Below, one piece after another: positions 20,236-54,800 of a DNA stretch of 64,000 nucleotides. Under the pieces are notes generated by a model. That model did no database searches and had not been told where the DNA came from. It saw only the letters and a list, made by a program, of their open reading frames with translations. Every line of letters begins with the position of its first letter. Position 1 is the first letter of the stretch. The stretch spans positions 452,045-516,044 of the forward strand of contig CBDCRU010000002.1 in NCBI GenBank assembly GCA_965221115.1, written 5' to 3'. A program made the position numbers and the translations under genes. The DNA comes from Alphaproteobacteria bacterium. GTDB taxonomy: Bacteria > Pseudomonadota > Alphaproteobacteria > SP197.

Positions 20236-20793
20236 TAACCCCGTCAACCTCGGCGGATGGCGTCTGACAAAAAGGGTCCGGTTCAAAACAACGTGCTTCA
20301 ACAGTATCCAGGATGGTTTCATTCAGACCGGTAGTTTGATGCGACCAACTTCTTTCGAGAGCGACCTTCCCGGAAGCGCAACCGCTTACCCACTTCTTCA
20401 GCGAAAATCGGATTCAGATGTTAGTTGCAGTCCTCAAGTTTGTGTGTCGTTTCTCCGACTGAGCGCCAGTCTGCGGCTGGGGTCCATCTCTGCACATAGT
20501 GAAGCATGTGAAGCACAGGTCTTCACTGCTCATGGTTTCCTCTATTGCCTCCTTCTGGGCCATGTGTTCCCGGCTGGCACGAACGATGTCTTATCTCGCA
20601 GGGACAACCACTCCATCTCTATCCATCGGCCGACTGTTACGGGCAGACATCGGACGATGAAGGACGGAGAAGCAAAGCAGTATGACGGAACTCAGACAGT
20701 CTAGACGTAATGCGAACGACTTGACAAAGAGATAGCAACGATATATGTTGTGCGCAACACTCTATATTTGGATCCACGAGGAGAAGAAGAACA

Positions 20794-21486
20794 ATGACAA
20801 ACCGATTCAACGAAATGTCGGACTCCAAGACATGGAACATCCTTGTCCGCGCCGCGAGGCATGCGCTGGAGGAAAATGGCCTGTCACCCTCACGCATGCC
20901 TGGTCGCGGAAGATCGAACATATGGGAAATCGAGGAAGAGGGCCGCCGCAAGAAGGTGTCCATCCGGACCACAAAGAACAGGTGGTTCGCCTTTCCGCCT
21001 GTGCATGGAGGCGCCGAATGGAAGACGCTGGACAAGGTGGAGATTGTGGTGGTCGCGGCTGTCGATGATCGTGAATTCCCACAGAGTGTCGAAGTGTACC
21101 GGTTCGACGCCGATGAGGTCCGGAAGCGGTTCGACGCGTCATACGAGGCGCGCATCGAAGCGGGTCACATCGTCAGAGAGAATTTCGGCATGTGGGTGAA
21201 CCTCGACGTCGATGATCGTGAGCTTCCGGTGTGCGTCGGGGCGGGACTTGCAAACGAACATGCCCCTATCGCCGTTTACCAGCTTGAGGATGTGATCAAG
21301 GAGAGTAGCACGGAGAGAGTCGAGGTCGCGGCCGGCGGGGAGGAAGGAGGCGATAACGAGAGCGGTCCCTTCAGTGCGGCACCCGACACAATCGCGGACG
21401 TTATGGAGTGGGCGCGGAAACGTATCGCGACGATTTCCGGAATGCGCTTGGAAGCAGTGAAGTTGGATTGCCGCCTAGAGACGTGA
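20794..21486 (+). CDS. hypothetical protein (230 aa), first gene inside the accessory island
   Basis: ORF with a plausible start. No motif recognised. Confidence 0.4.
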   Translation: MTNRFNEMSDSKTWNILVRAARHALEENGLSPSRMPGRGRSNIWEIEEEGRRKKVSIRTTKNRWFAFPPVHGGAEWKTLDKVEIVVVAAVDDREFPQSVEVYRFDADEVRKRFDASYEARIEAGHIVRENFGMWVNLDVDDRELPVCVGAGLANEHAPIAVYQLEDVIKESSTERVEVAAGGEEGGDNESGPFSAAPDTIADVMEWARKRIATISGMRLEAVKLDCRLET

Positions 21487-22251
21487 GATGAGGCGGTAGA
21501 GAGGGGTAAGACTGTTCGCAGACCACACCGTCGACGACCCCCGGCGCGCATGTAGGAACGGGTCAGATGGCCAAACGGCACTGGTGCGACGTCGCGGCGG
21601 AGTCGCCCGTTCAAGCAAAGACCAAGTCAGTAGAGTCGTGGCCTGTGGACTGCTCGCTCCGGCGCAGGGACCTCGCGGTGGTCCACAGAAAGAGACAGCG
21701 TTTGCGTTTGGAGAAGACGACTCGGGCAGCAAATCAGCCGCGGTTCATAGGCGGAAGCCAGAAGCCGGCGTTGAGAGCATGTTTTCTGCCACCACTCAAC
21801 GGTTCATCGTGGCCGCAACTGGAGTCAGGTTGAGCAGGTCCGACGCGAAGGGCTTTGGAGGGCGAAAGGCCATGTCTGCTCATGCTTCGTGCGCCACAAG
21901 TTTGACTAGCGTGATACCGGGCTCGACAAATACGAACAGCAGTGTGACGTTCTATTCGTTTTGTTTGTCCCTGTCGAATGGCGGCTCGACCGTCACAGTT
22001 GAAGTGGCCTCGACCCGATGGCTGATCCTCAGCCTTAGTCGACCGGGTCCGGACTCGGGAGGGGTACAGTTGGCGTTGGTGCAACGAAGGGCTCAAGGGG
22101 TGCCGACCGAGACGTCAGTCCGCAAGCGGTAGGACCGCTGGAAGGACAGATCCGGGGGAATCCGGTCGATCTTGCAGTTTCAAGTGAATTCTCCTTCAGG
22201 AATGGAAATTCGGAGAACAAGTCTGACGGGCAGTAGTTAGGGAGCAGTGAA

Positions 22252-22794
22252 TTGACAAACATCGCGTGCCTTGGTTGGGGCTCACTGATCTGGGATCCTC
22301 GGGGCCTGCCTGTCCGGCGAGGCTGGTTCGATGATGGCCCACTGGTTCCTGTAGAATTCGCGCGGCTATCCCAAGATGGGCGGATCACCGTAGTCGTGGT
22401 GGATTCGGCTCGACCGCTGCGCTCTTTGTGGGCGTTGATGGACGGGGAAGACCTGCAGGAGGCGAGAGTACGCCTCCAGGAACGCGAGGGTGTGAGTAAT
22501 CGGGAATACATAGGGAGCTGGACGCGTGGCGATGGCGACTCCCCTTCTCTGCAGGGTCTCGCCGAATGGGCGTTCACCCGGAATATTGATGCGGTCGTTT
22601 GGACGGCGTTGCCGCCCAAGTTCGACAAGAGAAATGGGAGGCTGCCCACGGAAGATGAAGTGATCGCGTATCTCCAAGCGCTCAGGGGCGCAAAACGCGA
22701 CGAGGCCGAACGCTACATTCGGCTCGCGCCGCGCCAGATCGATACTGCGTATCGACGTCGAATCGAAGCGGAGCTCAATTGGGCGCCGGAATGA
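22252..22794 (+). CDS. gamma-glutamyl cyclotransferase-like (GGCT/ChaC/AIG2-fold) protein
   Basis: The N-terminal CLGWGSLIWDPRG resembles the ChaC/GGCT start [YF]GYGSL[IM]W. 180 aa. Confidence 0.4.
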   Translation: MTNIACLGWGSLIWDPRGLPVRRGWFDDGPLVPVEFARLSQDGRITVVVVDSARPLRSLWALMDGEDLQEARVRLQEREGVSNREYIGSWTRGDGDSPSLQGLAEWAFTRNIDAVVWTALPPKFDKRNGRLPTEDEVIAYLQALRGAKRDEAERYIRLAPRQIDTAYRRRIEAELNWAPE

Positions 22795-23159
22795 GTCTTG
22801 AGATCATTTGCAACACGCAACGTGGAGATTCTCGAAACGTGTCTCGATGCGAGTGCCCAAATGAGGGAGTGGAACTGAAGATAGTGGGACTCGGAGAACA
22901 TCGATGAACTTCCGATCCAGGGGATGGTTCGGATGCACCGCGCTCGTGACCACCGCCTTTTGGCGAGTAACCGGAGCGGTGACAGTCGAAGATTCGAGAA
23001 GTGTTGGCCGTTGTCGGCCAATAGGTCAGAGCGTGGATGCTGTCAAACTGAAACATGGACCATACTCAAGGCTTCGGACGGTGGCAGTGACTAACAGTTG
23101 GAGTCATGAAATGGCCAAGCGAAGAAGGGTTGACCTGACCAAGGGCATGCGGGGAAAAG

Positions 23160-23834
23160 TTGATGCCAAGAAGAGCAGATCTCAGACGATTCTATAGTTT
23201 GGTGCGAAGGCTCGCGCCCAACATGGACGACAGGCACCTGCTTGGCCAACTTGAAAGTAGGGACTGCCCAAACCGAGGCGTTTACTTCTTCTTCGAGGAT
23301 GGCGAGCGGAGATCAGGCAGCGGAAATGGCGATCGCGTGGTTCGAGTGGGATCCCATGCACTGAACGCCGGAGAGACCACAACCTTGTGGGACAGGCTGT
23401 ACGATCACCGAGGTGCCGATTCACCACGTCAACGACAAAGCGGGTCGGTATTTCGAAATTGCGTTGGGAATGCCATCTGCCGTCGCAATCGTACTTTGGG
23501 GCCCGTGGATTGGCCGCACGACTCGAATCACGGAGATGTCGTTCGAATAGAAAGACTGATAAACCGCCATATGTGGCAGATGCCCGTCATTTTCATTCCA
23601 GTAAACCACCGCGTCCACCGCAGGTACATTGAGCGTAACGCAGTCGCGCTGCTGAGCGAGTATGGAGAAGAGAATCCTATAGATTGTCAATCCGGACGCT
23701 GGCTCGGTCGGCGGTGTAGCACGGAAAAGGTGAGGGAGTCCGGTCTCTGGCAAAGCGAATATGTCAACCACTATCACCGACCAGAATTTCTCGACCTGCT
23801 AGAAATGTATGTGGACCGGACCCTATGTCGCTAG
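23160..23834 (+). CDS. GIY-YIG-like nuclease-domain protein
   Basis: The N-terminal region RGVYFFFEDGERRSGSGNGDRVVRVGSHAL...LWDRLYDH matches GIY...YIG...R..H spacing. 224 aa. Confidence 0.4.
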   Translation: MMPRRADLRRFYSLVRRLAPNMDDRHLLGQLESRDCPNRGVYFFFEDGERRSGSGNGDRVVRVGSHALNAGETTTLWDRLYDHRGADSPRQRQSGSVFRNCVGNAICRRNRTLGPVDWPHDSNHGDVVRIERLINRHMWQMPVIFIPVNHRVHRRYIERNAVALLSEYGEENPIDCQSGRWLGRRCSTEKVRESGLWQSEYVNHYHRPEFLDLLEMYVDRTLCR

Positions 23835-23864
23835 CAAGTAGAACTGTCCGGTTATCGTAGCACA

Positions 23865-24893
23865 TCAATTGGCTGCTTCTGTTGGGGTTGCTGGCCCTGT
23901 GGGGAAGTGGTCAGGCGCGGAGCGGCTGTCCACTTGTCCACAGGGCGCCTTCGGGTCGCGTCGTAGCGGGTCACGCGGCCTTCCGGGTGTGAGTGTCGAT
24001 GGGGACTGCGTTGCTCCGGTACCGGGCGAGGCATCGTGGTCCATGGAAGACGGCCAGGGTGCCGTCGGGGTACTCGTGGATCCGGACGTGCGCCTTGACG
24101 TAATGGGGGCGATCCGGGCCAGCGGGGAGCTGCAGGATCCGTCTGCCGTAGCGCACGGTGTTGTCGCGGCCGACGATGCGCTGTGCGTGGAGGCACAGGA
24201 TGTCGTCGATCTGGTCGGGCCGGAGCAGCGGCACGAAGGCTGAGTCTTCAAGCTCGGGCGGGATCGCGAAGTGGCGGTTGTGGTCGGGCAAGTAGGTGTC
24301 CTCGATGAAGCGGTTGGCGGCCTCGATGGTGGTGATACCGGCGAGATCGAGTTCCGTGACCAAGCGGTCCTGGAGGGTGCCGAAGACGCGCTCCGAGCAA
24401 CCCCTCGCCTCGGGAGAGTAGGCGGCGATGTGCTCGATGCCGAGCTGATGGAGCGCCCTTCCGACCTGGGTGCGCCGGTCCCTGTCCACCTTGTCGCCGG
24501 CTTCGGGGGTGTGGAAGTAGTGGCTGCCGCGGTCGGTGTAGAGCGCGCCTGGCAGGCCCTGGGCCGTGAACACCTGCTTGAGCGCCCGGAAGGTGGACGC
24601 GGTGCCTCCCTCGCCGAAACCTTGCCGAGCCGGCGATCGAACAGTCCCTCCAAGCCTTCCTCCTCGTAACGCTGCCGGTAGTGCCGGAAGTTGCGCTCCG
24701 ACATCCCCAGCAACTCCGCCGCATCCATCGCCGAGAGACGCTTCTCCTCAAAGCGTTCCAGCTCATCCCGAAACTTCTCCATCCTGCGTTCCTGAAGCCA
24801 TGCCGTCCGGTTCATCAGGGCGCCTCCCACCGGGACACCTAACCGGACAACTCGTGTGCTACCTAAACTGGACAGATCATGTGCTACCGACAC
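23865..24893 (-). pseudogene. IS481/ISNCY-like DDE (rve) transposase, frameshifted and internally deleted
   Basis: The HTH N-terminus frame (...GLFDRRLGKVSAREAP) switches to the catalytic frame (ALYTDRGSHYF...YSPEARGCSERVFGTLQDRL) near 24600. About 100 residues including the first catalytic Asp region appear to be missing. Confidence 0.65.
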
Positions 24894-24944: not shown

Positions 24945-25145
24945 ATGGCAAGACCTCGAGGAAAACAGAAGACTGAGCGGGTGACCATCAACCTAGATCC
25001 TCGCTCCTATGAGATTTTGCTCAACGTGGCCAAACGCAATCAGGCACCCGTCGCACAAGTCGCACGGAGAGCGGTGGTGGAATTTCTTCGGCGAGAAGAA
25101 CCATCCATGGATCAATGGACGCTACCGCTGGAACCACAGGCATGA
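24945..25145 (+). CDS. ribbon-helix-helix (CopG/Arc-like) DNA-binding protein, candidate controller of the methyltransferase operon
   Basis: 66 aa. TINLDPRSYEILLNVAKRN...VARRAVVEFL is a typical RHH. Its stop overlaps the M1 start (ATGA). Confidence 0.6.
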   Translation: MARPRGKQKTERVTINLDPRSYEILLNVAKRNQAPVAQVARRAVVEFLRREEPSMDQWTLPLEPQA

Positions 25146-26365
25146 GTCCATGGGAGCGGGTTGGTGCGTCCGCGGCCTTGGAGCAACTCAACATGGACTT
25201 CGGACCGGTGACGGAAGACTTCGAGTCCGAAACTGCCCGCGACTTCGATATGTCCCCGGAGGAAGTACTCCAAACCGTAGATTGGGACTTTCCCGAACGT
25301 AGCGTCCAGGAGCCATTGGAAGCCATCCATCCCTATCCCGCTAGGTTCATCTCTGAAATTCCGCGCTCTCTGCTGGACGCACTGCCGTTACCATCGGGAG
25401 CCATTGTCCTCGACCCATTCTGCGGCAGCGGAACCACGCTAGTCGAATGTCAGCGCCGTGGAATTCCTGCGATCGGCATCGATCTCAATCCGATCGCCTG
25501 CCTCATGAGCCGTGTCAAAACTACACCAATTGCTGCAGGTCTTCGGGCTCACGCACTTGCCGTAGCCGAACGTGCGAGGACGGGGCCTGCAGTCGCCATT
25601 CCCGACATTCCCAACCTGGATCACTGGTTCCAGCCAGACATTCAAGACCAGTTGGCAAGACTCCTGGATGCCATCGATTCCTTGCCTGTTCCCGAACAAG
25701 ACAGCTTGAAGCTTGCCCTGTCGAGCATCATTGTGCGCGTGTCGAATCAGGAGAGTGATACGCGGTACGCGGCGGTCTCGAAGGACGTAGGCCCGGATGC
25801 TGTGCGGTCCTTGTTTCTGAGGGCGACAGAACGCTTAGAAACGGCGTTGCGCGCACGGCGCTATCGACTGAGTTCCGTGAGTGTGATCCAAGGGGATACT
25901 CTCAGTGTAGAACCTTCAAAAATTCGGGCTCCCGTGGGACTCGTCATCACATCGCCACCGTACCCAAACGCGTACGAGTACTGGCTGTATCACAAGTACC
26001 GCATGTGGTGGTTGGGATTCGACGCGCTGAATGTCAAAGAGCGAGAAATCGGTGCTCGGGCTCATTTTTTCAAGAAGAACCACCATACGCCGGAAGATTT
26101 TTCCCGCCAGATGCGCCAAACATTCGCACTGTTGGAATGCATTGTGATGCCGGGTGGGTATGTCTGTTTCGTTGTAGGGCGTTCGCAGATCCACGGGCGA
26201 ATTGTCGACAACGCGAAAATCATCTCCGAGGCTGGCGCGACGTGTGGGTTCAGCGCCTATTTCGCCACCGACCGCCTCCTTGCGGCCCATCGTAAGTCGT
26301 TCAATCTCTCTCACGCAAACATCAAGAAGGAGACGATCCTAATCCTGAGGAAGGAACCCTTCTGA
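25142..26365 (+). CDS. DNA amino-methyltransferase M1 (N6-adenine or N4-cytosine)
   Basis: Motif I VLDPFCGSGTT precedes motif IV SPPYPNAY. Translationally coupled on both sides. Confidence 0.8.
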   Translation: MSPWERVGASAALEQLNMDFGPVTEDFESETARDFDMSPEEVLQTVDWDFPERSVQEPLEAIHPYPARFISEIPRSLLDALPLPSGAIVLDPFCGSGTTLVECQRRGIPAIGIDLNPIACLMSRVKTTPIAAGLRAHALAVAERARTGPAVAIPDIPNLDHWFQPDIQDQLARLLDAIDSLPVPEQDSLKLALSSIIVRVSNQESDTRYAAVSKDVGPDAVRSLFLRATERLETALRARRYRLSSVSVIQGDTLSVEPSKIRAPVGLVITSPPYPNAYEYWLYHKYRMWWLGFDALNVKEREIGARAHFFKKNHHTPEDFSRQMRQTFALLECIVMPGGYVCFVVGRSQIHGRIVDNAKIISEAGATCGFSAYFATDRLLAAHRKSFNLSHANIKKETILILRKEPF

Positions 26366-27852
26366 TGCGTCTAACCTGGCATGGATACGCCTACTACCCG
26401 TACGAGCGGGAACTTGCGACCAGAGAGATAGCGGCCTTGCTCGGAAACGGCAACATGCAGACGGTCAGCGACGGCATTGAACTACGCGGAACAGTTTCCG
26501 CTGGCCCGGCCGAACGTCTCACTTACTTCTCCGGACGGATCAACGGTAGCGGTTTCGAGCCGACCATCCAAGCAAAGCTGGAACAAGCGGCACGCATTGG
26601 CGAGAAGAAACAGGCAACCCGCTATTCGGTCCATGGCTTGCACGAATACAAAGGCAAGTTCAATCCACAAGTCGTACGGGCGCTGCTGAACATCTTCCAG
26701 GTCGAACCAGGGCAACGCGTCATGGACCCGTTTTGCGGAAGCGGGACGACACTTGTGGAGTGTGCACACTTGGGGGCGTTCGCAGTCGGCATGGACATCA
26801 ACCCGCTGGCTACCCTCATCGCACGCGCCAAGCTGAACGCGCTTTGCACTCCGGTCGGGAAGCTCGAGAGAGAATTCGCGCGTCTCTCGCGATGGGCGCT
26901 GCAGCCCACGCTCACGAACGACGATGTACGTCGCGACGGCCGGATCGAATATCTAGAACGGTGGTTCAATGTCGGGATACTCGAGCAAATCGAGCTAGTG
27001 CGTTCCGCCATCGAGCGCGTCGATTCCGTGAGCGCCCGGCTCGTTTTTCTGACAATAGCCAGCAATTTGCTGCGCGACTACTCCCAACAGGATCCTAACG
27101 ACCTGCGTACGCGACGGCGCAAGTCCCCGCTTCCAGAGCTTCCGTTCACAGTCGCATTCCTCAAGGCCGTCCCCCCATTCCTGAAACGAGTCCAAGCGGC
27201 CCAGGATGTGCTCGGCTCCAATCTCCCTCGAGGACACGTGATACAGCGTGATACCACGGCAATTGCGATGGAGGAGGCAGGAGCGCCCTTCGACGCAGCA
27301 GTCAGCAGCCCCCCGTATGCGATGGCCCTCCCGTACATCGACACCCAGCGATTGTCTCTGGTTTGGCTGGGCCTGTGTCTACCCGATCAACTGGCAGACC
27401 TGGAAGCGCGGATGATCGGCAGCCGTGAAATGCGTGGCCAAGCACACCGCGTGTTGCTGCGGCGGCTAAAGGACAATGCCGACAACCTGCCTAGCTCCGA
27501 ATTCGACATTTGCCTCAAGCTACACCGGACTCTTGGCGAGAACGACGGCTTTCGCCGCAAAGCCGTGCCGCTCTTGCTGTACCGCTACTTCGCATCCATG
27601 CAGGCGAGTTTCCGAAGACTTCGAACCATGATGAAACCAGGGGCTCCTTACGGCCTGATTGTGGGGCACAATCACACGACAATCGGCGGTGTCCGGCACG
27701 AACTCAATACCCCTATGCACTTGGCCAGACTGGCAGGTGCAGAAGGGTGGAACATAGACGAACTGATCCCCCTGCAGACGTATCGGCGATACGGATACCA
27801 CGCGAGTAACGCGGTCTCCGCGGAAAGCCTGGTCATTCTGCGTAACGCGTAA
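26365..27852 (+). CDS. DNA amino-methyltransferase M2 (paralogue of M1)
   Basis: Motif I MDPFCGSGTT, motif IV SSPPYAMALPY. Same architecture as M1. Its start overlaps the M1 stop (TGATG). Confidence 0.8.
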   Translation: MRLTWHGYAYYPYERELATREIAALLGNGNMQTVSDGIELRGTVSAGPAERLTYFSGRINGSGFEPTIQAKLEQAARIGEKKQATRYSVHGLHEYKGKFNPQVVRALLNIFQVEPGQRVMDPFCGSGTTLVECAHLGAFAVGMDINPLATLIARAKLNALCTPVGKLEREFARLSRWALQPTLTNDDVRRDGRIEYLERWFNVGILEQIELVRSAIERVDSVSARLVFLTIASNLLRDYSQQDPNDLRTRRRKSPLPELPFTVAFLKAVPPFLKRVQAAQDVLGSNLPRGHVIQRDTTAIAMEEAGAPFDAAVSSPPYAMALPYIDTQRLSLVWLGLCLPDQLADLEARMIGSREMRGQAHRVLLRRLKDNADNLPSSEFDICLKLHRTLGENDGFRRKAVPLLLYRYFASMQASFRRLRTMMKPGAPYGLIVGHNHTTIGGVRHELNTPMHLARLAGAEGWNIDELIPLQTYRRYGYHASNAVSAESLVILRNA

Positions 27853-28024
27853 CAATTTACAGACTGCATTCCAGCGTCGTGTAGCGGCCGACTAGCTTGG
27901 TACCGGCGGCAAGTGACCCGGGAAAAGCCAGCATGCGCCTCGACCGACCAATTCCTTGCGTTGTTGGGCGGCATTGAACACATGTTGCAACGCTTCAAAC
28001 AAGTGCGACGCTTCGTCAACAAAC

Positions 28025-31244: not shown

Positions 31245-31530
31245 TCACTGCTCCGGCGATATCTTAGAGCACGGCGTCAGTCCGAGATCATGACTTCTCC
31301 CGTGCGTTCGTACCATCCCTCGGCCCCAACCGGCGGAGATTGGGTTGCAGACACAGTACATTGCCACAACGCTTAAGATTGATGCCATTGAGCCAATCTG
31401 GCCGAATTCGCACCCTCTCGATCATCTCGGCTTCCAAGCCAAGGCGATTGACCTTAAGCAAGTCGCAAAAGTGATTACCATTGATTGGGGCGATCGCAAT
31501 CGCGCCAGTTCGGGCAGCTTCGTCAGAAGC

Positions 31531-43978: not shown

Positions 43979-44419
43979 ATGTGTCGTGAGGGTCGGGTCT
44001 TCAGGTGCGGCCTGTGCCGCCGCCAGGTGGTTCTGTGCGAGGCCTGCGATCGCGGCCATCTGTATTGCTCGAAGACCTGCAGCATGGAGGCGCGCCGGGC
44101 GCGCCGCCGTGCCTCCAACCGGCGCCATGCGAAGAGCCCGAAGGGACGCCGGGGCAACCGGGAGCGTCAGCGCCGGTTCCGCCTGCGCCGTTGGGAGAGG
44201 GCGCGTGCGAAGGCTCGTGTCTCCACCGCCCGTCACCGTGTCGCGCAAAAAACCGTAACGGACCATGGCTTGGCCGGGGCGAAGGCGCCGGTTCATGGTG
44301 GCCGGCACGTGCTCGAGGACCCCGAACGGGGGTCCCGTTGCGCGGCATGTGGCCGGTTGTGCCCGTTCCTTGTGACGACGAGCCAGTGGCCACGGCCGAC
44401 ACGCCGGACGAGAGAGTGA
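43979..44419 (+). CDS. Cys-rich zinc-ribbon-like ORF upstream of istA inside the IS (may be spurious)
   Basis: 146 aa with CGLC, CEAC and CSKTC, then an Arg-rich tail. High-GC context makes chance ORFs likely. Confidence 0.25.
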   Translation: MCREGRVFRCGLCRRQVVLCEACDRGHLYCSKTCSMEARRARRRASNRRHAKSPKGRRGNRERQRRFRLRRWERARAKARVSTARHRVAQKTVTDHGLAGAKAPVHGGRHVLEDPERGSRCAACGRLCPFLVTTSQWPRPTRRTRE

Positions 44420-44422
44420 GAG

Positions 44423-45895: not shown

Positions 45896-46596
45896 CCACA
45901 CTCAAGGAACGCGCCCGGGCGCTCAGGCTCCATGGCCTCGTCTCCCGCTGGGACGAGATCGCCGAGGCCGACTGGCTCTGTGACCTCATCGACCGGGAAG
46001 AAAAGGAGCGCTCCGCGCGCAGCCTCGAACGGCGCCGCGCCGCCGCCCACATCCCCGCCTTCACGCCCCTGGCCGACTTCAACTGGTCATGGCCGCGGGC
46101 CATCGACGCCGAGGCCGTCAACAGGCTGATGGCCCTCGACTTCATCGATGAGCGCACCAACGCAGTGCTGATCGGCGGACAGGGAACCGGCAAGACCATG
46201 ATCGCCGCCAACATCGCCCACCAGGCCCTCGTCCACGGCCATACCGTGCGCTTCGCCAACGCTCCCGGCCTGCTCGCCCGGCTCGCCAGCCTCGACAGCC
46301 GGCAACTCCTGCTGCATCACCTCACCCTCATCGCCAGGCCCCGCCTGCTCGTCCTCGACGAAATCGGATATCTCACGCTCGACCGCCACCAGGGAGACCT
46401 CCTCTACGCCATCATCACCCGGCGCTACCAGCGACGCTCCACCCTGCTCACCACCTCCCTGGGCTTCGCCCAGTGGGACCACATCTTCCCCTCCACCAGC
46501 TCGATCGCCGGAACCGTCGACCGCCTCGTCCACAACGCCACCATCGTCACCATCGACGGCGACTCCTTCCGCCTGGGACGCAAGGGTGGCCGATGA
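45892..46596 (+). CDS. istB: IS21-family helper ATPase IstB
   Basis: GTG start overlaps the istA stop. Walker A GGQGTGKT, Walker B LLVLDEIGY. Confidence 0.88.
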   Translation: MTTLKERARALRLHGLVSRWDEIAEADWLCDLIDREEKERSARSLERRRAAAHIPAFTPLADFNWSWPRAIDAEAVNRLMALDFIDERTNAVLIGGQGTGKTMIAANIAHQALVHGHTVRFANAPGLLARLASLDSRQLLLHHLTLIARPRLLVLDEIGYLTLDRHQGDLLYAIITRRYQRRSTLLTTSLGFAQWDHIFPSTSSIAGTVDRLVHNATIVTIDGDSFRLGRKGGR

Positions 46597-47446
46597 CGCC
46601 TTCAGGAGGGACCTCGAGGCCGTCAAGCGCATGCCGCTGGAGACCATCGCCGCGCGATGGGGATACGTCCGCGACACACACGCCTCGACGCCCATGAACC
46701 CCGTGCTGCGGGGACCCGGCCTCCCCAAGCTCGTCCTCAAGCGCCAGGACAACGGACACTGGACCTACTTCAATACCCAGGACGCCGACGACAACGGCAC
46801 CGCTGTCGACTTCATGAAGAACCGAGGCCTCTCCTTCGCCGCCATCCGCGCCACCAGACGCGCAACCTTCCTCGACACATGGCGCCGCGCCCGGGAACAC
46901 CCCGCTCCCCCATGGCTCATCCGGCGCGGCATCCGGCGCTCCACACTCGACACCTGGAAACCCCTCATCCGATGCGATGACAGGGGCCACGTCCTGTTCG
47001 CACACCGCAACGCAAGGCGCATCATCACCGGCTTCGAAATCGCCCCGCCCGACGGACCCCGGCGCTTCGCCACAGGGGGACGCCGCGCCCTCTTCGCCCT
47101 CGCCAGTCGCACCCCTGACGCCATCGCCGCCCTCGTCATCACCGAAGGCGCCGTCAACGCGCTCAGCCTCGCCCAGATCGACGGATGCCCCACCGAGCAC
47201 GCCTTCCTCTCCACCGCAGGCGCTCCCGCCGCGGCGCAGTGCGCCCAGATCAGCCACGCCGCCCGCATCCTGCCCGCACTCACCACCATCATCCTCGCCC
47301 AGGACGGCGATACAGCCGGCGACCGGCAGGCCGACACGCTCCGCTCCAGGATCGACATCCCGGCCCACGTCCGCATGACACGGCGCAGGCCGCCCGACAA
47401 CACCGACTGGAACGACATCCTGCGCAACCGGGATCAGGACGACTGA
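46586..47446 (+). CDS. DUF3991/Toprim-like protein (primase-like passenger gene)
   Basis: Start overlaps the istB stop. C-terminal Toprim-like ITEGAVNALS ... ILAQDGDTAGD. 286 aa. Confidence 0.45.
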   Translation: MADDAFRRDLEAVKRMPLETIAARWGYVRDTHASTPMNPVLRGPGLPKLVLKRQDNGHWTYFNTQDADDNGTAVDFMKNRGLSFAAIRATRRATFLDTWRRAREHPAPPWLIRRGIRRSTLDTWKPLIRCDDRGHVLFAHRNARRIITGFEIAPPDGPRRFATGGRRALFALASRTPDAIAALVITEGAVNALSLAQIDGCPTEHAFLSTAGAPAAAQCAQISHAARILPALTTIILAQDGDTAGDRQADTLRSRIDIPAHVRMTRRRPPDNTDWNDILRNRDQDD

Positions 47447-47612
47447 GCGAAAACGCTCGATCGCCAGCGTCGCCATCGCTCCGTCACGGGCAGCGACCAC
47501 GCCAGCCAACCCGATAGGGCAATCACAATGGGGAAAAAGCCAATCAAGGCCTCATCAAAAGCGCGGCTCGAAGCCGATATCACGCGCTTCTACAAAACCG
47601 CCAACAACCTGC

Positions 47613-49349
47613 GTCATAGGAGAGAACAATTCCGGGAAAACTAACGTCCTGCATGCTATCCGCCTGTGCATTGATACAGGACTTTCGTCTACGTACCGAT
47701 CCCTTTCCCCAAATGATATTCATTCCGCCGTCGATATCGCGCATCCTGAGCAAGTACTCATCGGCCTGGAGATAGCGGACTTTGCCGGAAGAACGAACGA
47801 AGAGGCACTAGTCGGCGCGTGGCAGCACAAGCCTGGTCTTGCGCGGCTAATTTATCGCTACAGGCCGAAACTCAGTGTGCGTGAGGATCTTGAGGTCGGG
47901 GAAATCGAGGCGGGCAAACTTACGCACGAAGACTATCACTGGGAGATTACCGGGGGCGGCGATCCTGCACACGATCTTGCCGACATACCGTGGAATCAGG
48001 ATGTCGGCTCGTCCATCCGGTTTTCAGATCTTCAGTCATTTCTGGTGGTCTTTCTGCCGGCCCTTCGTGATGTTGAGGGGGACCTGCGGCAGTTCCGCAG
48101 TTCTCCGCTGGCGCGTCTGATCGACGCGATGGAGATTGGACCCAACGCGCAGGAAGAGCTGCTTGACGCGCTGCGTAAGGCGAATGAGGAAATCGCAACA
48201 GCTGAAACCATTGACGAAATCGCCAAAGCGATCGACGCATCATTTGAGAGGGTGACAGGACCGGCGTTCAACATGAATGTTGCACTCGGCCTTGCGGAGC
48301 CGTCCTTTCAGTCGATCATCCGCGCCTTGCGCATCTTGCTCACCAACGCCGCGATGCAGGATTTCGATCCGTCCTCAAACGGAATGGGGCTCAATAACAT
48401 TCTCTATGTCTCTATTCTCATTGAGTACTTCCACAAGCGCGTTGCGCGGCAGAAGTCAGCCGGACAGATCATCCTTTTCGAAGAGCCTGAAGCGCACTTG
48501 CATCCGCAACTACAACTCACATTGTTCAAGGCCCTTAGTGCCTTGCCGTTCCAGTCAATACTAACCACTCACAGCACACATATCACGGCCAATGCGCCGC
48601 TCGGCTCATATGTAGTTCTGTCGCAGACGGGCCGCCCGGCAATAGCTTCATGCATGCCCGCTGAAGATGCGAGACTGGAACAGGCAGAAATCGACGATCT
48701 TGAGCGCTACCTAGACGCCACACGATCCAATTTGCTGTTCGCCCGCAAAGTGATGCTTGTCGAAGGGCCTGCAGAACTGTTCCTAATTCCCGCCCTGCTC
48801 AAGCATGTGATGGATTTCGACTTTGACCGAGACGGTATATCGCTCATACCGATCTACGGTGTACATTTCCACGTCTACGCCAAGCTCTTTTCTGGACAGG
48901 CACTACCGAAGAAGTGCGCCATCATCACGGACGGCGACTTAAGGCCCAGCGATGCTGACCCCGAACTGGAAGGGGAAGACGACTTCCCGCCACCGCCTGA
49001 TCTTGAGGCCTTGCAAAATGAGTTCGTACGCGTGTTTGCCTGCAAGACAACCTTCGAACGGGCTCTCGTGTTCGAAGGGACGCTCGAAATGTTTGCATTG
49101 ACCGCCGAGGATATTGGCGCCCCCATCGTCGCCAGACGGCTGAGGGATGGCACCGAACAACTGGACAACGACGATCTTGGCGATGACGAGAAGAGCAAGA
49201 TACTGAGACCGCTCCGCAAAATGGTCCTAAACACCGCCAAGCGGTACGGAAAGGCCCGCTTCGCTCAGGTCACCGCTCGCCATGCCGATAAGGCCGAGGT
49301 CGTCCCCAGATATCTAGTCGATGCTGCAGAATGGTTGCGCTCACCATGA
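47613..49349 (+). pseudogene. gajA: gajA remainder (OLD-family ABC ATPase + Toprim nuclease), lacking its own start because of the IS21 insertion
   Basis: The P-loop VIGENNSGKTN at 47613.. is in frame with ORF 47877..49349 but has no in-frame start back to the stop at 47445. Downstream: Walker B ILFEEPEAHLHP, H-loop TTHSTH, Toprim KVMLVEGPAE and AIITDGD. Confidence 0.8.
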
Positions 49350-51118
49350 GGTTGACCGACGAACAAAGGGAAGCGGTGCGCTGTGCAGACGATCTCATGC
49401 TGACTGCTTGTCCCGGTAGCGGAAAAACTCGGGTTATCATCTCCAAACTGTCGCGCACAATCGAAGAGGTAAGAGGCACGCCCCGTGCTGTGGCCTGCAT
49501 CACCTATACAAACGCCGCGATGCACGAAATAGAAGCTCGGCTGCGCCATCATATCCAGCCGGGCGACGACGCCTACTACGATGTCTGCACCATCCATTCG
49601 TTTTGCCTGAACAATGTATTCCGGCCGTATTGTCACCTAATCAAGGGCTACAAAGGCGGCTTTAGAGTACTGACACCGGACAGCGCCGATTTTGAGCGGC
49701 TGGTTACGGCAACTTGTGAGCGGCATAACCGATTTAATCTCACGTTCAGGGACTTTGAGGACTTTACTCAACTGCGTATGAGTGTGAAGGGGGAGCCAGT
49801 TGGTCACGCCCTTGATCGCGGCGCCCTGACGGCGGAGATGGCGCAGGAGTTCTGGAATCGTATCCGGGAGGAGGGGTTCGTTGATTTTGCCAATATAATC
49901 TTTTACGCATATCTTCTTCTGAAGACGCGCCCGGAAATCCTCAGCTACATCTCGGCAAAGTTCGCTTGGATTCTCGTTGACGAGTTCCAAGATACAACCA
50001 GCCTACAGGTGGAAATCCTCTCGCTGATTGCCGATGCAGGTCGGACGCACTTTCTCCTCGTCGGCGATCCATGTCAGTCGATCTTCCGGTTTGCCGGAGC
50101 GCGGCCCGATCTTGCCGACGAGTTTGCCGAACGCATAGGAGCGCGCACGGATTTGCAGCTCTCCGGAAATTTCCGGTCAAGTCCGCCGGTGATTGCCCAC
50201 GCCAACAACCTGTATCCTCGCACACCCCCGATGAAAGCCGTCGGACGCGCGAAGAAGTACACCAACAAACCGGTTTGGCTAAGCGGTGAAACAGCTTTTG
50301 AGGTCATCGCGGACTATTTTCTGCCAGCCCTTGAGGGGCTGGACATTCCGGTCGGTGACGCCGCCATTCTCGCGCCGACCTGGTATTCACTGTTTCCCCT
50401 TGGGCGTCGGCTTCGGGAGTACGGTGTGAGCATCGTCGGTCCCGGTGCGCGACCTTACCGCCGTAATCGTCTTTTTGCGCCTCTTGCTGAGCAGGTGTGT
50501 GCCTACATGATGGAACCCGATCCGGAGGCCATCATCGGGATCGAGCGCACCCTGTTTAACACTGTGTTGAATGCGACGGGGCGAACTTGTTTCGATCTCT
50601 TCTCGTACCGCGGGCGCATCATCGTCTTTCGTCTCCTCGACAGCGCCCGGCATCTTCATGATGCTCACATGGGTGGCATCGCTTGGCTCGAGGCCGGCGC
50701 CCGCGCGTTCACTGAAGTTCTGATCGATGAGGAGTATCTAAGTCCAGCGGAAAGCGATCTCTTCGCGATGTCTGCCGAAGAAATGAAGGCGGACATGCGC
50801 AACAACAAAGTGGATTTAGCTAACATGACAATGTCCGATCTCGGTATCTACGCGAGTCCCGAGGCGGCACTCAAGCTTTCAACGCTCCACAACGCGAAGG
50901 GCCGGGAGTACCGCGCTGTCGCCATGATCGACCTCCATGAAGGGCGAATTCCCTTTTACCAGGCCATGACCGACGAGGAAGTTGCGGAAGCTAAACGGCT
51001 CTTTTACGTCGGCGTAACCAGATCCGAGCAATTCCTGCTCTACGTCACCGATAGAAGCCACTACCGTAATACGCCGACCCGCTTTCTTCGGGTCGCGAGT
51101 GGCGTAGGCATGTGTTAG
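49346..51118 (+). CDS. gajB: Gabija GajB, UvrD-like SF1 helicase
   Basis: ATG overlaps the gajA stop (ATGA). Motif I ACPGSGKT, motif II VDEFQD, Q-motif LTDEQREAV. 590 aa. Confidence 0.8.
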   Translation: MRLTDEQREAVRCADDLMLTACPGSGKTRVIISKLSRTIEEVRGTPRAVACITYTNAAMHEIEARLRHHIQPGDDAYYDVCTIHSFCLNNVFRPYCHLIKGYKGGFRVLTPDSADFERLVTATCERHNRFNLTFRDFEDFTQLRMSVKGEPVGHALDRGALTAEMAQEFWNRIREEGFVDFANIIFYAYLLLKTRPEILSYISAKFAWILVDEFQDTTSLQVEILSLIADAGRTHFLLVGDPCQSIFRFAGARPDLADEFAERIGARTDLQLSGNFRSSPPVIAHANNLYPRTPPMKAVGRAKKYTNKPVWLSGETAFEVIADYFLPALEGLDIPVGDAAILAPTWYSLFPLGRRLREYGVSIVGPGARPYRRNRLFAPLAEQVCAYMMEPDPEAIIGIERTLFNTVLNATGRTCFDLFSYRGRIIVFRLLDSARHLHDAHMGGIAWLEAGARAFTEVLIDEEYLSPAESDLFAMSAEEMKADMRNNKVDLANMTMSDLGIYASPEAALKLSTLHNAKGREYRAVAMIDLHEGRIPFYQAMTDEEVAEAKRLFYVGVTRSEQFLLYVTDRSHYRNTPTRFLRVASGVGMC

Positions 51119-51185: not shown

Positions 51186-51791
51186 ATGGTGCTCGTAGCA
51201 GAACTCCCAATATCGGAGGTGATTTTCCGGATCGAAACGCTGAACAGTCAGCTCGCTAAATTCTGGTCGCAAAGCGACGGTTGGGCACCGGTCGCGGCAG
51301 CCGCATTGCTGAGCAAGTCGCGCCTTGACTGGCAGGTGTCATTGTCCGGCTCACTAGGCATCTGGATACGCGACCCGGCTGAAGCGCTAACGCCCGCCGA
51401 ACTTATTCTCGCATGGGTCAATCTCGGAAGTTTGATCGAGGGCACGATCAAGCTGTTCCTGTCCGTGTACTACGACACATTCAAGGCGGACATCGAGAAT
51501 CTCAAGAAAGTTGATTCCTACAAAAAGAAGAAGCAGGAGGCGCTGTCGCCCGACGGTCTTACCCTGGAACCGCTGCGGCAGTATTGCAAGCTCCGCAGGG
51601 TCCTGGATAACGAGGACTTGGCACTTGTCGAACTCGTACAGCAACGCCGCAATGCTATCCATGCTTTCAAAGATCGGCCTATAGGCGAAAAGGCCGAGTT
51701 TGAGGAAGCGGTGCGGAGCTATCTACAAATGTTGCGGAACGTCATTACCCGGCTGCCTTATCCAAGTGACGAATACGTGCCAAGTGAATAA
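51186..51791 (+). CDS. hypothetical helical protein with an Rx4H (HEPN-like) motif
   Basis: 201 aa. QQRRNAIHAF matches the HEPN R-x4-6-H signature. Immediately downstream of gajB. Confidence 0.35.
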   Translation: MVLVAELPISEVIFRIETLNSQLAKFWSQSDGWAPVAAAALLSKSRLDWQVSLSGSLGIWIRDPAEALTPAELILAWVNLGSLIEGTIKLFLSVYYDTFKADIENLKKVDSYKKKKQEALSPDGLTLEPLRQYCKLRRVLDNEDLALVELVQQRRNAIHAFKDRPIGEKAEFEEAVRSYLQMLRNVITRLPYPSDEYVPSE

Positions 51792-52236
51792 CCTGACCGA
51801 CAGCAGATCACTTGCTTATGGTGCAGTCGCGCATGCGTCTGAATTCCTCCTGCGGGATGGGTTGGTTCAAGCCCAAGTCTCGAGTAATGATCTTCACGGT
51901 CTCAAATCTGTCTGATTTTGGGGCAGTTCGCAGGTAAGCATCCGCCGAGGTCGGCTTCGGGACCGCACGGTCTACGCACACGGGGTGAACATGGACGTGT
52001 TGAATGACAGCGTTTTCTTATCTGTTCGAACAAAAACGAGGAAACAGGGTCAATTCGGCTCGATCACGGGGCAGCCACTTCACACCAGCCTCATGGCATA
52101 CATTCTTGCTCTTGAAGTCGGTCCCCTGGTTCAAGAGGATGCGGCAGCTCATTGACCCTGACTCCTGGACAAACGTCGGTGGCAATGTTGCAGAGATGCT
52201 GAAGGTGGCGGGGATGGATTGCCTGTCCTACCTTAG

Positions 52237-52408
52237 TCATGTCAGCCAAGCCACGGAATGTCTTTCGCGTCGTGCGCGAAAGTCGTCCGAGGTTTCGAGA
52301 TTGCCATCAGAGATGAAAGGCACCGGACTGCGCAGGTGGACGAACTCCAGATTGCCAGCTACACGCAAGGTGAGATAGAGCTGGAAACGCGCATCCCTTG
52401 ACAACCGA
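52237..52408 (-). pseudogene. fragment homologous to the signature/Walker-B region of the SbcC/YhaN-like ATPase gene (about 80% nucleotide identity to 34744..34912)
   Basis: By-eye alignment. It translates as ...SRDARFQLYLTLRVAGNLEFV...PFISDGNLETSDDFRAR, against KGARFQLYLALRVAGYLEFV...PFIADDILETSDDFRAR in the full gene. Flanks are unrelated. Confidence 0.6.
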
Positions 52409-52419
52409 CGGCGTGTCTT

Positions 52420-52776
52420 CTGGGAACGAAGGAGCCGAACGAGCGGAGAATCAGCGACAAGGTGAAGGAAATCTACGACGTACGGTCGGACATCGTTCAC
52501 AACCGACTGCACAGGTGGGCGCCTGAAAAGGCTCGCTCAGCATACGTCGAAGGCCTCGACCTCACACGGGAGGCCCTGTCCAAGCTGCCGCGGGAGGGAC
52601 CGCCGTGGGTCTGGACGGTGGCACTTGAGGCCGCGCAGGTTTGCAGCAGATCACTTCTCAGTCGGGCGATCAGGACGTGGCAGTCGGATTACACGGTGCT
52701 CCTGCCCCAACACGAAATTCGCACGCGGTTTGAACACCTGGCGAAACCCGGGCCACGGCGTGGGACGCGAGGGTGA
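52420..52776 (+). pseudogene. HEPN-like C-terminal fragment (IYDVRSDIVHNRLH)
   Basis: The open frame begins without a start right after the ATPase fragment. RSDIVH is an Rx4H motif of the RiboL-PSP/Abi HEPN type. Confidence 0.3.
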
Positions 52777-53127
52777 GCGGGCACATGCTCGGACACTTGA
52801 TTGAGGCCGGTTTTCTGCTAATGAGCAATGTCGGCGTTGTTGCGCCTGACCCTTCATGGTATCGAGCGTGAGGGGCTTTGTAGAACGGAGAAACGGAGAA
52901 ACACCCTTTGACTCCTCTTTTTGACAAGGATTGCAATCACGTCGCATGGATGAGCAATGATGGTCGGAACCTGTTCGACACTGCGATGAACTGGGTTGCC
53001 TATATCTCGAGCGGACACGCTTGGTCCGCCTCTTCGGGCAATTGGATGGGAGGCGTGGTGGGCTACAACTGCCTCGACCAATCGGGACGTCCGGTTCTAT
53101 GGAACCCGCGAAATCCCGTGCGCGGGA

Positions 53128-53218
53128 CGGTCCGTCCGGCAAGGCCGGCTCGCGCCGCGAGGCAACCGCGTCCTGCCCGGCCGCCTCGCCCTCCACGGCC
53201 GGCACGGCCGGCGAGACC
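53128..53218 (+). repeat. imperfect 9-bp tandem repeat (about 10 units, CGNCCNGCN) encoding an (RPA)n / Pro-Arg-rich tract inside ORF 52908..53276
   Basis: The periodicity is visible as cgtccggca aggccggct cgcgccgcg aggcaaccg cgtcctgcc cggccgcct cgccctcca cggccggca cggccggcg. Confidence 0.5.
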
Positions 53219-53331
53219 TGCGACACCAGTGGGAGGATGGTCAAGCCTCCACATGGATGCTTGGATTGCTCAGTGATCGGATAGTGCTGCGAATCCGCAC
53301 TAGTGCTGTTGGGCCAGAAATGAGGTGAGCG

Positions 53332-53922
53332 ATGGTGTTTGATCGGCTCTTGACAGACACTGTAACTTTGATCAAGCGGGACGGAACAACCGTCGATGCT
53401 ATAAGCGCGAGCGTTCAATCAGAAAATATCTATATTCAGCGCCACGATCTACTGATCGAAACAGGAGACCTCGTGCAACGGAAGATGTCCAATGGCGGCG
53501 AAGAGACCTATGAAGTGATCGATCCAGGGTTTCATGAGAAATTCCACAGGATTCCGGCTGGATACCAGATGGTTGTGCGTAAACTAGGTATTCCGGAGGC
53601 AAAGAGCGCCATTCGAAGCGTTACTTTCAACGTCACCGGAAATAATGCTCGAATCAACCAGAACTCTGTTGATCAATCCATCAATGTTGTTCAAATGAGT
53701 TCTGATGTCCCCGATCATATCGAGGCGCTTAGGAACGAGATTATCCGGACAATTGAAAAAGAACCGCAGCGCACCGAAGCTCTTGAGATCCTGGACGGTA
53801 TCGAGCAAGAGTTCAAGTCTGGTTCGCCCAAGCGTTCTGTTGTTGGAGCTCTCGTGCAAGGGCTGCCGGCGACCAGTGCGATCGCTTCTATAGGTTCATT
53901 TCTGTTATCGTGCCTTAAGTAG
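53332..53922 (+). CDS. hypothetical protein (196 aa, AT-rich)
   Basis: Clean ORF with low GC relative to its surroundings. No motif recognised. Confidence 0.4.
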   Translation: MVFDRLLTDTVTLIKRDGTTVDAISASVQSENIYIQRHDLLIETGDLVQRKMSNGGEETYEVIDPGFHEKFHRIPAGYQMVVRKLGIPEAKSAIRSVTFNVTGNNARINQNSVDQSINVVQMSSDVPDHIEALRNEIIRTIEKEPQRTEALEILDGIEQEFKSGSPKRSVVGALVQGLPATSAIASIGSFLLSCLK

Positions 53923-54099
53923 CGGAGCAGGCATCTTCAGGATTGGGCAAGAAAGCTGCTTGGTGCGGTGTTCGTCAACCCTCTCGCCTGTCGCCCCGGC
54001 GGTGGGGACGATCAAAGCCTCGGGTGAGTGACTGTTGATGATCGGTAAGTGCATGGGCCACTGAAGGGTGTAGAAGAAGGCATGTTCACAATCCCTATC

Positions 54100-54760
54100 T
54101 GGCTATGTCATTGGAAATCTAGGCATGTTTGATTCGAATCCGGTGTCAACGGGCGCCGCTGCAACAGTGCGTCGAGCACCTCGTTGTAGGCAGGCGCGGA
54201 ACCCTTCCAAGGCGTGCAACCTCCTTTACCGAAAGGAACCGCTCCCGCTTGTGCGCTTTGTAGCGCTTCACGTGCAGGCACGGGTTTGAGCCGGCCTGGT
54301 GCCTGCCCCACACCTCCGCCAGGTTGAAGGGCTTCGAAAGCACCCCTAGGGTCCCGTTGGCTTGCTAGGGCCTGTCCCGCTGGCCGTGATGCAGGGCGGC
54401 GATGTCCTTGCGCTAAACACCTCCGAGACCCGCATCTCCTCGATCACCGGGTCGATGAAAAACTTCACCGAACCGCGGTACTCCTGCTGGGTGCTCGGCT
54501 TGCAATGATCGAGCACACGCTCCTTGAAGAACCGTGCGGTCAACCCGGCCTCACGCTTGGCCTCTATGTCCCGGGGGTCGATGCCCTTCTTCGCAAGCTA
54601 CAGGATCTCCAACGTCCAAGCCCGGCCCACGCTCACCACCCTGGGGGCGCCGATGGTGTGCCAGCGAAACTTCCCATCGACGTGGGTTTGGACGAATCAC
54701 GCCTATCGCCCCAATTGCCTCACTCGCAGCCCAAAGCCGGTAAGTTCACTGTGCCAGTAG
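54100..54760 (-). pseudogene. N-terminal remnants of a second tyrosine integrase at the island edge
   Basis: Fragments FFKERVLDHCKPSTQQEYRGSVKFFIDPVI and KRERFLSVKEVARLG lie in different frames. There is no catalytic domain. Confidence 0.45.
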
Positions 54761-54800
54761 ACAGTATCTCTGTCCGCCTGCCGGATTGGGAGTAGCCGGA

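Follow-up and report, generated by a model that had tools for sequence, protein, structure and literature searches.

A variable site for defence and mobile genes between two transporter genes in an uncultured alphaproteobacterial lineage

What kind of region is it when the compact, high-GC genes of an alphaproteobacterial chromosome give way, over some 34.5 kb, to a mixture of defence genes, integrase remnants and insertion sequences (ISs)? We asked this of a stretch of 64,000 nucleotides (nt) from Alphaproteobacteria bacterium (GenBank assembly GCA_965221115.1, contig CBDCRU010000002.1, positions 452,045 to 516,044 of the forward strand), here called the window, in which positions 20236 to 54800 form the interval, or island, in question. 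An initial annotation, made from the sequence alone, had read the interval as a hotspot where defence systems are repeatedly gained and silenced, and had named conserved gene order in related genomes as the observation that would speak against this. We found the opposite, namely, different cargo at the same site. Conserved flanks, variable defence and mobile cargo and disrupted genes together support the hotspot interpretation, and we consider it highly probable that the interval is a chromosomal insertion hotspot that received integrative elements repeatedly and was later hit by ISs and deletions.

The site and its cargo in related genomes

The interval is a variable gap bounded by two convergent transporter genes:

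16639 to 20235, plus strand: fused ABC exporter of 1198 amino acids (aa), with two membrane and two ATPase domains (Pfam ABC_tran 2e-65, ABC_membrane 1.5e-40)
20236 to 20360, unstranded: conserved noncoding tail, with the variable cargo after it (alignments with relatives)
54801 to 56912, minus strand: fused ABC-transporter permease of 703 aa, first gene of a conserved catabolic/transport cluster (BPD_transp_1 3.8e-39)

Base composition sets the interval apart from these surroundings. In 500-nt windows, the left flank (0.664 +/- 0.023) and the right flank (0.654 +/- 0.020) are even in GC content; the interval has a mean of 0.595 +/- 0.067 and a range of 0.42 to 0.73, a spread about three times that of the flanks. 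This confirms the previously noted patchwork between compact, high-GC flanks. Block by block, the high GC values are those of the IS elements (0.65 to 0.69), which lie close to the host value, and the defence genes are lower, at 0.445 to 0.61.

To locate the same site in relatives, we used the 1198-aa ABC exporter as a query against a genome collection; each locus was then compared with the window. The best matches of the window were metagenome-assembled genomes (MAGs) of uncultured Alphaproteobacteria, with up to 97% aa and 94% nt identity in the left flank. Window positions 6.6 to 20.2 kb are colinear in 11 related genomes (76 to 94% nt identity), and the exporter is 81 to 97% identical in these 11, lying in each downstream of a gene for a DAO oxidoreductase. 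In all 11, synteny breaks at 20235 to 20285: blastn similarity reaches 20245 to 20285, and alignments show the noncoding tail to be weakly conserved to about 20360 in some relatives. A terminator scan found no terminator-like site in this tail, and consensus folding gave only a weak 5-bp hairpin. On the right, where the flank is visible in four genomes within the 10 kb examined and additionally at the metagenome locus L065, synteny returns precisely at 54800 in three genomes (L014, L006 and L007) and at 54772 in L009. The permease stop codon, at which the right-hand similarity starts, follows directly on position 54800; the permease itself is 91 to 94% identical in relatives. Judged by these synteny breaks, the limits first proposed for the island (20250 and 54780) were correct to within about 100 nt at the left end and to within about 20 nt at the right end.

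Each relative in which both flanks are retained has a different cargo between these two convergent genes, with sizes of 2.7 kb to more than 10 kb:

L014, 2.7 kb: helix-turn-helix (HTH) protein and small open reading frames (ORFs)
L006, 3.4 kb: 442-aa gene without recognised function, and an Xre/RES pair
L007, 9.4 kb: intact Fic gene (Pfam Fic 1.4e-12)
L009, 9.8 kb: PDC-S54 (9e-123) and an IS1634 relic
L002, more than 10 kb: protein with SIR2_2, nSTAND and TPR, NERD helicase (3e-55) and DpdF-like helicase (1e-94)
L003, more than 10 kb: BREX genes brxA (BrxA 2e-73) and brxC (BrxC 7e-278); the brxC ORF stops at model position 889 of 1146
L004, more than 10 kb: PIN_12 protein
L065, metagenome contig with a permease 91% identical: Beta_protein and Peptidase_M78 pair beside the permease

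Known or candidate defence systems thus occur in the window and in the relatives' cargo alike, as read from gene lists (Pfam and PADLOC). When the window island and the relatives' cargo were searched against each other with tblastn in both directions, they had in common only the IS1634 relic and the 3' stub of a Fic gene. In L003, the brxC ORF is followed by high-GC transposase-like ORFs (15482 to 18160), and brxC may be a second defence gene at this hotspot that was cut by a mobile element.

The site looks different in more distant relatives. At 72 to 78% permease identity (metagenome contigs L066 to L069 and L082), the permease is separated from the DAO gene by about 0.6 kb, and both the island and the exporter are absent; a TetR-like ORF occupies this spacer in L068, the sole one inspected. 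Linkage of the exporter to the DAO gene is limited to the clade with at least 78% identity. The ABC exporter gives the impression of an earlier insertion at this site that has become fixed. Its description as a core gene holds within the close clade and fails in these more distant relatives, where the exporter is absent from the site.

Insertion sequences, integrase relics and broken genes

Together, the ISs account for 27% of the island, and all four elements or relics that had been noticed earlier were found (one ISNCY, two IS1634 and one IS21-like). Their positions, those of two tyrosine integrases and those of the systems that they interrupt or adjoin are as follows:

23841 to 24878, minus strand: ISNCY-family IS, decayed by a frameshift and an internal deletion (NCBIfam transpos_ISNCY_2 4.2e-55)
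25115 to 26365, plus strand: type II DNA methyltransferase 1, intact (PADLOC MTase_II 1.5e-130, full model; Pfam N6_N4_Mtase 3e-15)
26365 to 27852, plus strand: type II DNA methyltransferase 2, intact (PADLOC MTase_II 1.5e-131, full model)
27892 to 31244, minus strand: PLD-family (NgoFVII-like) restriction endonuclease, split (Pfam RE_NgoFVII 2.6e-9, PLDc_2)
28031 to 30042, plus strand: IS1634-A, with an intact 599-aa transposase (NCBIfam transpos_IS1634 2.7e-91, 307 bits, cutoff 100)
40107 to 43285, minus strand: tyrosine integrase 2, frameshifted (Phage_integrase 3.4e-17 and weak Arm-DNA-bind_3, three-frame translation)
41228 to 43253, plus strand: IS1634-B, with an intact 583-aa transposase (NCBIfam transpos_IS1634 4.7e-88, 296 bits, cutoff 100)
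43481 to 49349, plus strand: gajA, split by the IS21-like element into 43481 to 43561 and 47607 to 49349 (PADLOC GajA 1.6e-224)
43562 to 47606, plus strand: IS21-like element of 4,045 bp (IstB_IS21 4.7e-51, Mu-transpos_C_2 8e-23, Toprim_2 1.7e-9)
49331 to 51118, plus strand: gajB, UvrD-type helicase, intact (PADLOC GajB 4.6e-284, full model; UvrD-helicase 1.4e-45)
about 54200 to 54790, minus strand: tyrosine integrase 1, relic of the N-terminal half with several frame breaks, abutting the right flank (tblastn)

One interruption affects the Gabija system. The gajA gene, which begins about 200 nt beyond the first codons of integrase 2, is broken after codon 27, between 43561 and 43562, and excision of 43562 to 47612 restores a GajA of 605 aa (the PADLOC model has 604), whose start reads MQIDRVVIRNFRS...VIGENNSGKT. 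The PADLOC match covers model positions 116 to 602 of 604, and Pfam recognises OLD-like_TOPRIM and AAA_15. The inserted element has inverted repeats of 49 nt (90% complementary), and 6 bp of target sequence, ACCTGC, are exactly duplicated at its ends. With the element taken out, the locus resembles known Gabija (an ATPase-Toprim nuclease, GajA, with a UvrD-like helicase, GajB) in having full-length, adjacent genes, which overlap at 49331 to 49349. It differs from known Gabija in carrying a 4-kb IS21-like element after codon 27 of gajA. This Gabija system is not intact, since gajA is split by the IS, and it is presumably inactive as it stands; which other island genes stay active is likewise a reading from their sequences.

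Members of the IS21 family have istA and istB genes, terminal inverted repeats and a target duplication of 4 to 8 bp. The window element shares the istA/istB core, the long imperfect terminal repeats (TG...CA) and a 6-bp duplication. Within its repeats lie a Zn-ribbon-like ORF (43979 to 44419), istA (44423 to 45895, with HTH, rve and Mu-transpos_C_2 domains), istB (to 46596) and a DUF3991/Toprim ORF (46586 to 47446). At 4,045 bp with two extra ORFs inside the repeats, it departs from plasmid IS21 copies, to which only the istA/istB core is similar (about 64%), the Zn-ribbon-like and DUF3991/Toprim ORFs being without a match. In L003, a distant Toprim region (30% identity) ends a 568-aa ORF beside a transposase-like gene.

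A second defence system, of the restriction-modification (R-M) type, has been interrupted in a similar way. IS1634-A parts the endonuclease gene into 30049 to 31244 and 27892 to 28030, and its removal in silico together with one copy of GTTAAC opens a 444-aa ORF, of which the last 46 codons are putative. The terminal inverted repeats of the element are 23 nt long and perfect, and GTTAAC stands on both sides (28025 to 28030 and 30043 to 30048). Since GTTAAC is palindromic, it may be either a 6-bp target duplication or part of the 23-nt inverted repeat. The endonuclease gene is convergent with the two methylase genes, so that methylase and endonuclease occur in one type II locus, although the endonuclease is not intact and their pairing as a cognate R-M system is putative. 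The earlier calls of an R-M system (two MTase_II genes with an NgoFVII-type endonuclease) and of Gabija (GajA and GajB in PADLOC) are both confirmed.

In the ISNCY copy, the transposase match covers model positions 182 to 359 of 368, the HTH lies in another frame, and imperfect inverted repeats of 38 nt stand at 23841 to 23878 and 24841 to 24878. IS1634-B has 32-nt inverted repeats (84% complementary) and separates the first ~10 codons of integrase 2 (43254 to 43285) from the rest (40107 to 41227); across it, the integrase frame DRLLLRS|IDSLRF is unbroken. The catalytic domain of integrase 2 is complete (model positions 2 to 170 of 172) only when read across frame breaks. Integrase 1 has no Pfam match and was recognised by its similarity to integrase 2 (tblastn, 52% over 71 aa, E 9e-12; composite translation, 35% identity over 201 aa, E 3e-23). 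Both integrase remnants of the initial annotation are accounted for in this way.

Other island genes have decayed differently:

20373 to 20519, minus strand: 3' relic of a Fic-domain gene (tblastn with aa 476 to 524 of the 531-aa L007 Fic protein, 57% identity, E 2.5e-14)
31300 to 32019, minus strand: pseudogene of an Mrr-like (type IV) restriction endonuclease (Mrr_cat 1.2e-13 in the ORF; PADLOC mREase_IV 1e-6)
52130 to 52419, minus strand: 3' relic of a second YhaN-like gene, 290 nt (tblastn to YhaN aa 1091 to 1185, one frameshift, E 2e-26)

The Mrr gene has an in-frame stop, and only with read-through of this stop does the Mrr_cat match (7.5e-16) extend over model positions 12 to 114 of 115. 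Three further genes are left only as 3' stubs. The 3' ends of Fic and of the second YhaN-like gene account for the gene fragments suspected before, and the Fic relic agrees in position and orientation with the intact gene of L007. These other losses are due to deletions or point mutations and not to ISs. The proposal that ISs had silenced a large fraction of the defence genes is thus too broad: it holds for the endonuclease and gajA, that is, for two defence systems, besides one integrase.

We argue that the insertions of IS1634-A and the IS21-like element are recent, because their transposase ORFs and inverted repeats are intact and the target genes reopen upon removal; in the case of the IS21-like element, the exact target duplication points the same way. 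The integrative islands, we argue, have long been immobile, because their integrases are heavily decayed.

Proposed assembly of the island

The middle of the island holds a block that was also found elsewhere:

32278 to 34446, plus strand: PDC-S46, an ABC/SMC-type ATPase of 722 aa, single-gene defence candidate, intact (PADLOC 2e-261, full model)
34591 to 38190, minus strand: YhaN/SbcE-like, SMC-like ATPase of 1199 aa, intact (Pfam AAA_27 1.1e-59)
38136 to 39440, minus strand: YhaO/SbcD/Mre11-like metallophosphoesterase of 434 aa, intact (Metallophos 5.5e-12; sbcD and Mre11 below curated cutoffs)

The metallophosphoesterase gene overlaps the start of the ATPase gene, and the pair is convergent with PDC-S46. 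On an unrelated contig, L107, the order integrase, YhaO, YhaN, PDC-S46 is the same, at 77 to 79% nt identity, and the block adjoins integrase fragments and a RES-Xre pair. The second YhaN-like relic of the window is 84% identical in nt sequence to 34771 to 34904 (134 nt), which indicates that a module of this kind arrived at the hotspot on two occasions.

We propose that foreign DNA, mostly below host GC, would have entered on at least two occasions, carried by integrative islands whose movement depended on tyrosine recombinases. A decayed integrase would remain of each island at its permease-proximal end, both pointing the same way; that two diverged members of one integrase family share an orientation and each end a foreign block is a pattern that tandem accretion would be expected to give. 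Of the two islands, the one on the right (about 43.3 to 54.8 kb) would comprise Gabija, unassigned genes and integrase 1, and the one on the left (about 20.4 to 43.3 kb) would carry the GIY-YIG gene, the R-M system, Mrr, PDC-S46, the YhaO/YhaN-like pair and integrase 2. The L107 block supports such a modular arrival. Resident ISs of host-like GC would then have transposed in, splitting the endonuclease, gajA and integrase 2, and deletions and point mutations would have removed or inactivated Mrr, the Fic gene and the second YhaN-like gene. Turnover of cargo between lineages is most likely to have proceeded by new integrations and by homologous recombination through the conserved flanks.

Several points weigh against this account. 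Compared for attachment (att)-type direct repeats, the junctions at about 20.3, 43.3 and 54.8 kb have no sequence of 9 nt or more in common except a single 9-mer attributable to chance. As no att repeats were found and both integrases are dead, we infer integrase-driven entry only from the position and orientation of the integrases. The left 12 kb (20.4 to 32.2 kb), which has no integrase of its own, may have arrived separately. At the ends of IS1634-B we saw no target duplication, so a rearrangement may have taken place at that point. The relatives, at 76 to 94% nt identity, afford a comparison between species and not between strains, exact-match look-ups with both flank proteins and two island proteins having turned up no contig, and in five of them (L002, L003, L004, L008 and L034) the 10 kb examined do not reach the end of the cargo. 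Finally, the cargo of L008 and L034 includes at least one metabolic-looking gene, for an amidohydrolase, so the site is not exclusively one for defence.

Could the 34.5 kb instead be a single island, inserted once and decayed since, with no repeated gain? The missing att repeats between the proposed subislands would fit, as would the membership of both integrases in one family (35 to 52% identity). That same divergence, however, between two integrases lying 11 kb apart in the same orientation is hard to reconcile with one insertion, as are GC blocks ranging from 0.445 to 0.61. Moreover, the block at 32.2 to 40.4 kb stands separately in L107, where the rest of the island is absent, the second YhaN-like relic at 52130 to 52419 implies a separate acquisition, and every relative has different cargo. 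We therefore regard a single insertion as improbable. Differential loss from a large ancestral region, in which relatives with short cargo simply deleted it, strikes us as very improbable. Deletion has been active here, as the Fic, YhaN-like and integrase relics show, and the Fic relic does match an intact L007 gene at the same position; apart from this relic and the IS copy, however, the relatives have no homologous cargo genes, and for such nonoverlapping gene sets, loss alone is insufficient. Cargo GC that departs from host GC, the presence of integrases and IS elements and the outgroup genomes with only 0.6 kb at the site all speak for gain.

An artefact of assembly or binning, with IS repeats joining foreign contigs between genuine core segments, has to be considered as well, since the source is evidently a MAG, like all of its closest relatives in the genome collection, and ISs make up 27% of the interval. 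Against such a chimera, the junctions coincide with independent synteny breaks (about 10 genomes on the left and 5 on the right), each genome with its own cargo. A misjoin would also not be expected to leave an IS21-like element with an exact 6-bp duplication in a gene that is intact upon its removal; the endonuclease ORF likewise reopens when IS1634-A is removed. Two island proteins, furthermore, occur at 100% identity on a 1.96-Mb contig in a public protein collection. A chimera is thus extremely improbable, and repeated arrival at an insertion hotspot is the reading that we favour.

Candidate genes and comparison with known hotspots

The YhaO/YhaN-like pair had been noticed as SbcCD/YhaON-like, a label that the AAA_27 and metallophosphoesterase matches bear out. 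The YhaO-like protein has 7,914 homologues at E <= 1e-20; a PDB sequence search with the YhaN-like protein gave nothing useful. The pair was examined in five genomes and has a different locus in each; at four of these loci, its neighbours are mobile elements or defence genes. In L104, the pair lies between grpE and groEL with an IS1634 copy adjoining; in L105, it stands beside Mu-like prophage genes, with yhaN truncated; in L106, it lies within an operon for a Bmp-type ABC transporter; and in L107, it belongs to a defence-like island with PDC-S46. The Bacillus subtilis pair SbcE/SbcF (YhaN/YhaO) is a double-strand-break repair pair (PMC2811018). The window pair is like it in joining an AAA_27 SMC-like ATPase to a calcineurin-type Mre11/SbcD-like phosphoesterase in overlapping genes, the nuclease first. 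It is unlike it in lying inside a mobile island, in occupying varying loci and in having been acquired twice at the hotspot. We tentatively raise the idea, which we hold to be rather doubtful, that the pair could be a mobile anti-phage module missed by current defence catalogues and not a housekeeping repair function; the two acquisitions, the shared travel with an integrase and PDC-S46 and the differing loci point in that direction. Our literature search found no paper tying YhaN/YhaO or PDC-S46 to phage defence.

PDC-S46 lies in the lowest-GC block of the island (0.445). It had been labelled RloC/PrrC-like, after anticodon nucleases that have an AAA_13-type ATPase domain and a C-terminal anticodon-nuclease region, but because there is no AAA_13 match at E <= 0.01 (only weak matches to SMC_N, 7.6e-4, and RecF, 4e-5), this label is unsupported, and the gene is instead a full-length PADLOC PDC-S46. 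A PDB sequence search found no relative of it.

The other genes of the island are listed here:

20794 to 21486, plus strand: 230-aa ORF, function unassigned (no match in Pfam, PADLOC or NCBIfam)
22252 to 22794, plus strand: 180-aa ORF, called GGCT-like in the initial annotation (label from motifs only)
23160 to 23834, plus strand: GIY-YIG protein, homologue of the PADLOC candidate PDC-M57B, ORF intact (PDC-M57B 9.4e-49)
39624 to 39935, minus strand: 103-aa antitoxin-like ORF (DUF6364 1.7e-5, below the Pfam cutoff)
51186 to 51791, plus strand: 201-aa ORF with an RRNAIH (Rx4H) motif (no family match in Pfam or PADLOC)
52462 to 52776, plus strand: 104-aa ORF with an RSDIVH motif, possible HEPN fragment (motif read from the sequence)
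52908 to 53276, plus strand: protein with a 4-fold beta-flower (Bflower) domain (Pfam Bflower 5.7e-27; no PADLOC match)
53332 to 53922, plus strand: 196-aa ORF with a weak resemblance to PDC-M14B (PADLOC PDC-M14B 6e-7, partial)

The GIY-YIG call holds, by the PDC-M57B match and by PF26468 (GIY_YIG_3) on a 100%-identical database protein, P0241, and on homologues; our local Pfam copy had no match, and a PDB sequence search with this protein gave nothing useful. For the 180-aa ORF, no hidden Markov model or PDB match supported a GGCT/ChaC fold, and the single-sequence AlphaFold model was unusable (pLDDT, a confidence score, of 40.5). We rejected a two-gene system of GGCT and GIY-YIG, as the gene upstream of the GIY-YIG homologue in L109 is unrelated. 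Of the supposed toxin-antitoxin stub, a putative antitoxin half is indicated by the subcutoff DUF6364 match; the 43-aa stretch downstream has no PIN match and no toxin domain, and a PIN toxin stub there found no support.

The RRNAIH and RSDIVH ORFs have HEPN-type motifs and no match to a domain model in Pfam or PADLOC. The 201-aa ORF has 796 homologues, mostly alphaproteobacterial, in a well-conserved family without a Pfam domain. In L108, guaA lies upstream of its homologue (8001 to 8657), whose other neighbours are AbiEi/AbiEii and a gene with a TIR domain. A role as a third Gabija gene was rejected, since the homologue adjoins AbiE and TIR genes instead; the ORF may have a defence association of its own.

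Searches of the island with Rfam (at the gathering threshold and at E <= 0.1), for tRNAs and for tandem repeats revealed no noncoding RNA, tRNA target or CRISPR array. Near the left end of the window, at 2481 to 2566 on the minus strand, is a type II tRNA with a long variable arm and the anticodon loop CUUUAAA, whose anticodon UUA would read the stop codon UAA. It scores 60.7 bits with the Rfam tRNA model, ARAGORN calls it "tRNA-Stop," and its D arm and G73 discriminator are Ser-like. A copy that is 92% identical, on the IMG/VR contig L111, has compensatory changes in the acceptor and T stems, which argues that the tRNA is maintained and not decayed. From sequence, we regard it as a candidate ochre suppressor tRNA. 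Adjoining it is a block of lower GC (0.57) at 2000 to 4600, with a 328-aa ORF (2659 to 3645) and a transposase-like fragment (3992 to 4549), and this block may be a relic of another element that integrated beside the tRNA.

The kind of region described here is already well known. Core defence hotspots of Pseudomonas aeruginosa are portrayed by Johnson et al. 2023 (PMC10250203) as fixed sites bounded by core genes and holding differing anti-phage sets. The window site agrees in that conserved core genes bound it and its defence sets differ between genomes. It differs in its host, an uncultured alphaproteobacterial clade, in its convergent transporter genes as bounds, in its heavy IS load (27%) with two systems visibly knocked out and in being compared between species. 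For the Escherichia coli pan-genome, Hochhauser et al. 2023 (PMC10121019) describe defence-island hotspots, many of them on integrase-bearing mobile elements. As in E. coli, defence systems of the window cluster at a recurrent integration position with integrase genes at the island edge; unlike there, the window site lacks a tRNA or recognisable att target, both integrases are pseudogenes, and no prophage or satellite backbone is seen in the island.

Current thinking on defence islands is unchanged by this site. What the analysis adds is a documented defence hotspot in an uncultured alphaproteobacterial lineage in which none had been described before. With the conserved genes at its edges as anchors, variable cargo can be collected from related MAGs as a source of candidate new defence genes; in the window, the candidates are the 230-aa, 201-aa and 196-aa ORFs, the Bflower protein, PDC-S46 and the YhaO/YhaN-like pair. 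The IS knockouts, for their part, hit the DNA-cutting subunits of two systems (the endonuclease and GajA) and left the methylases and GajB intact. These nuclease knockouts look recent and reversible, and they fit the idea that costly or self-toxic nucleases are lost first.

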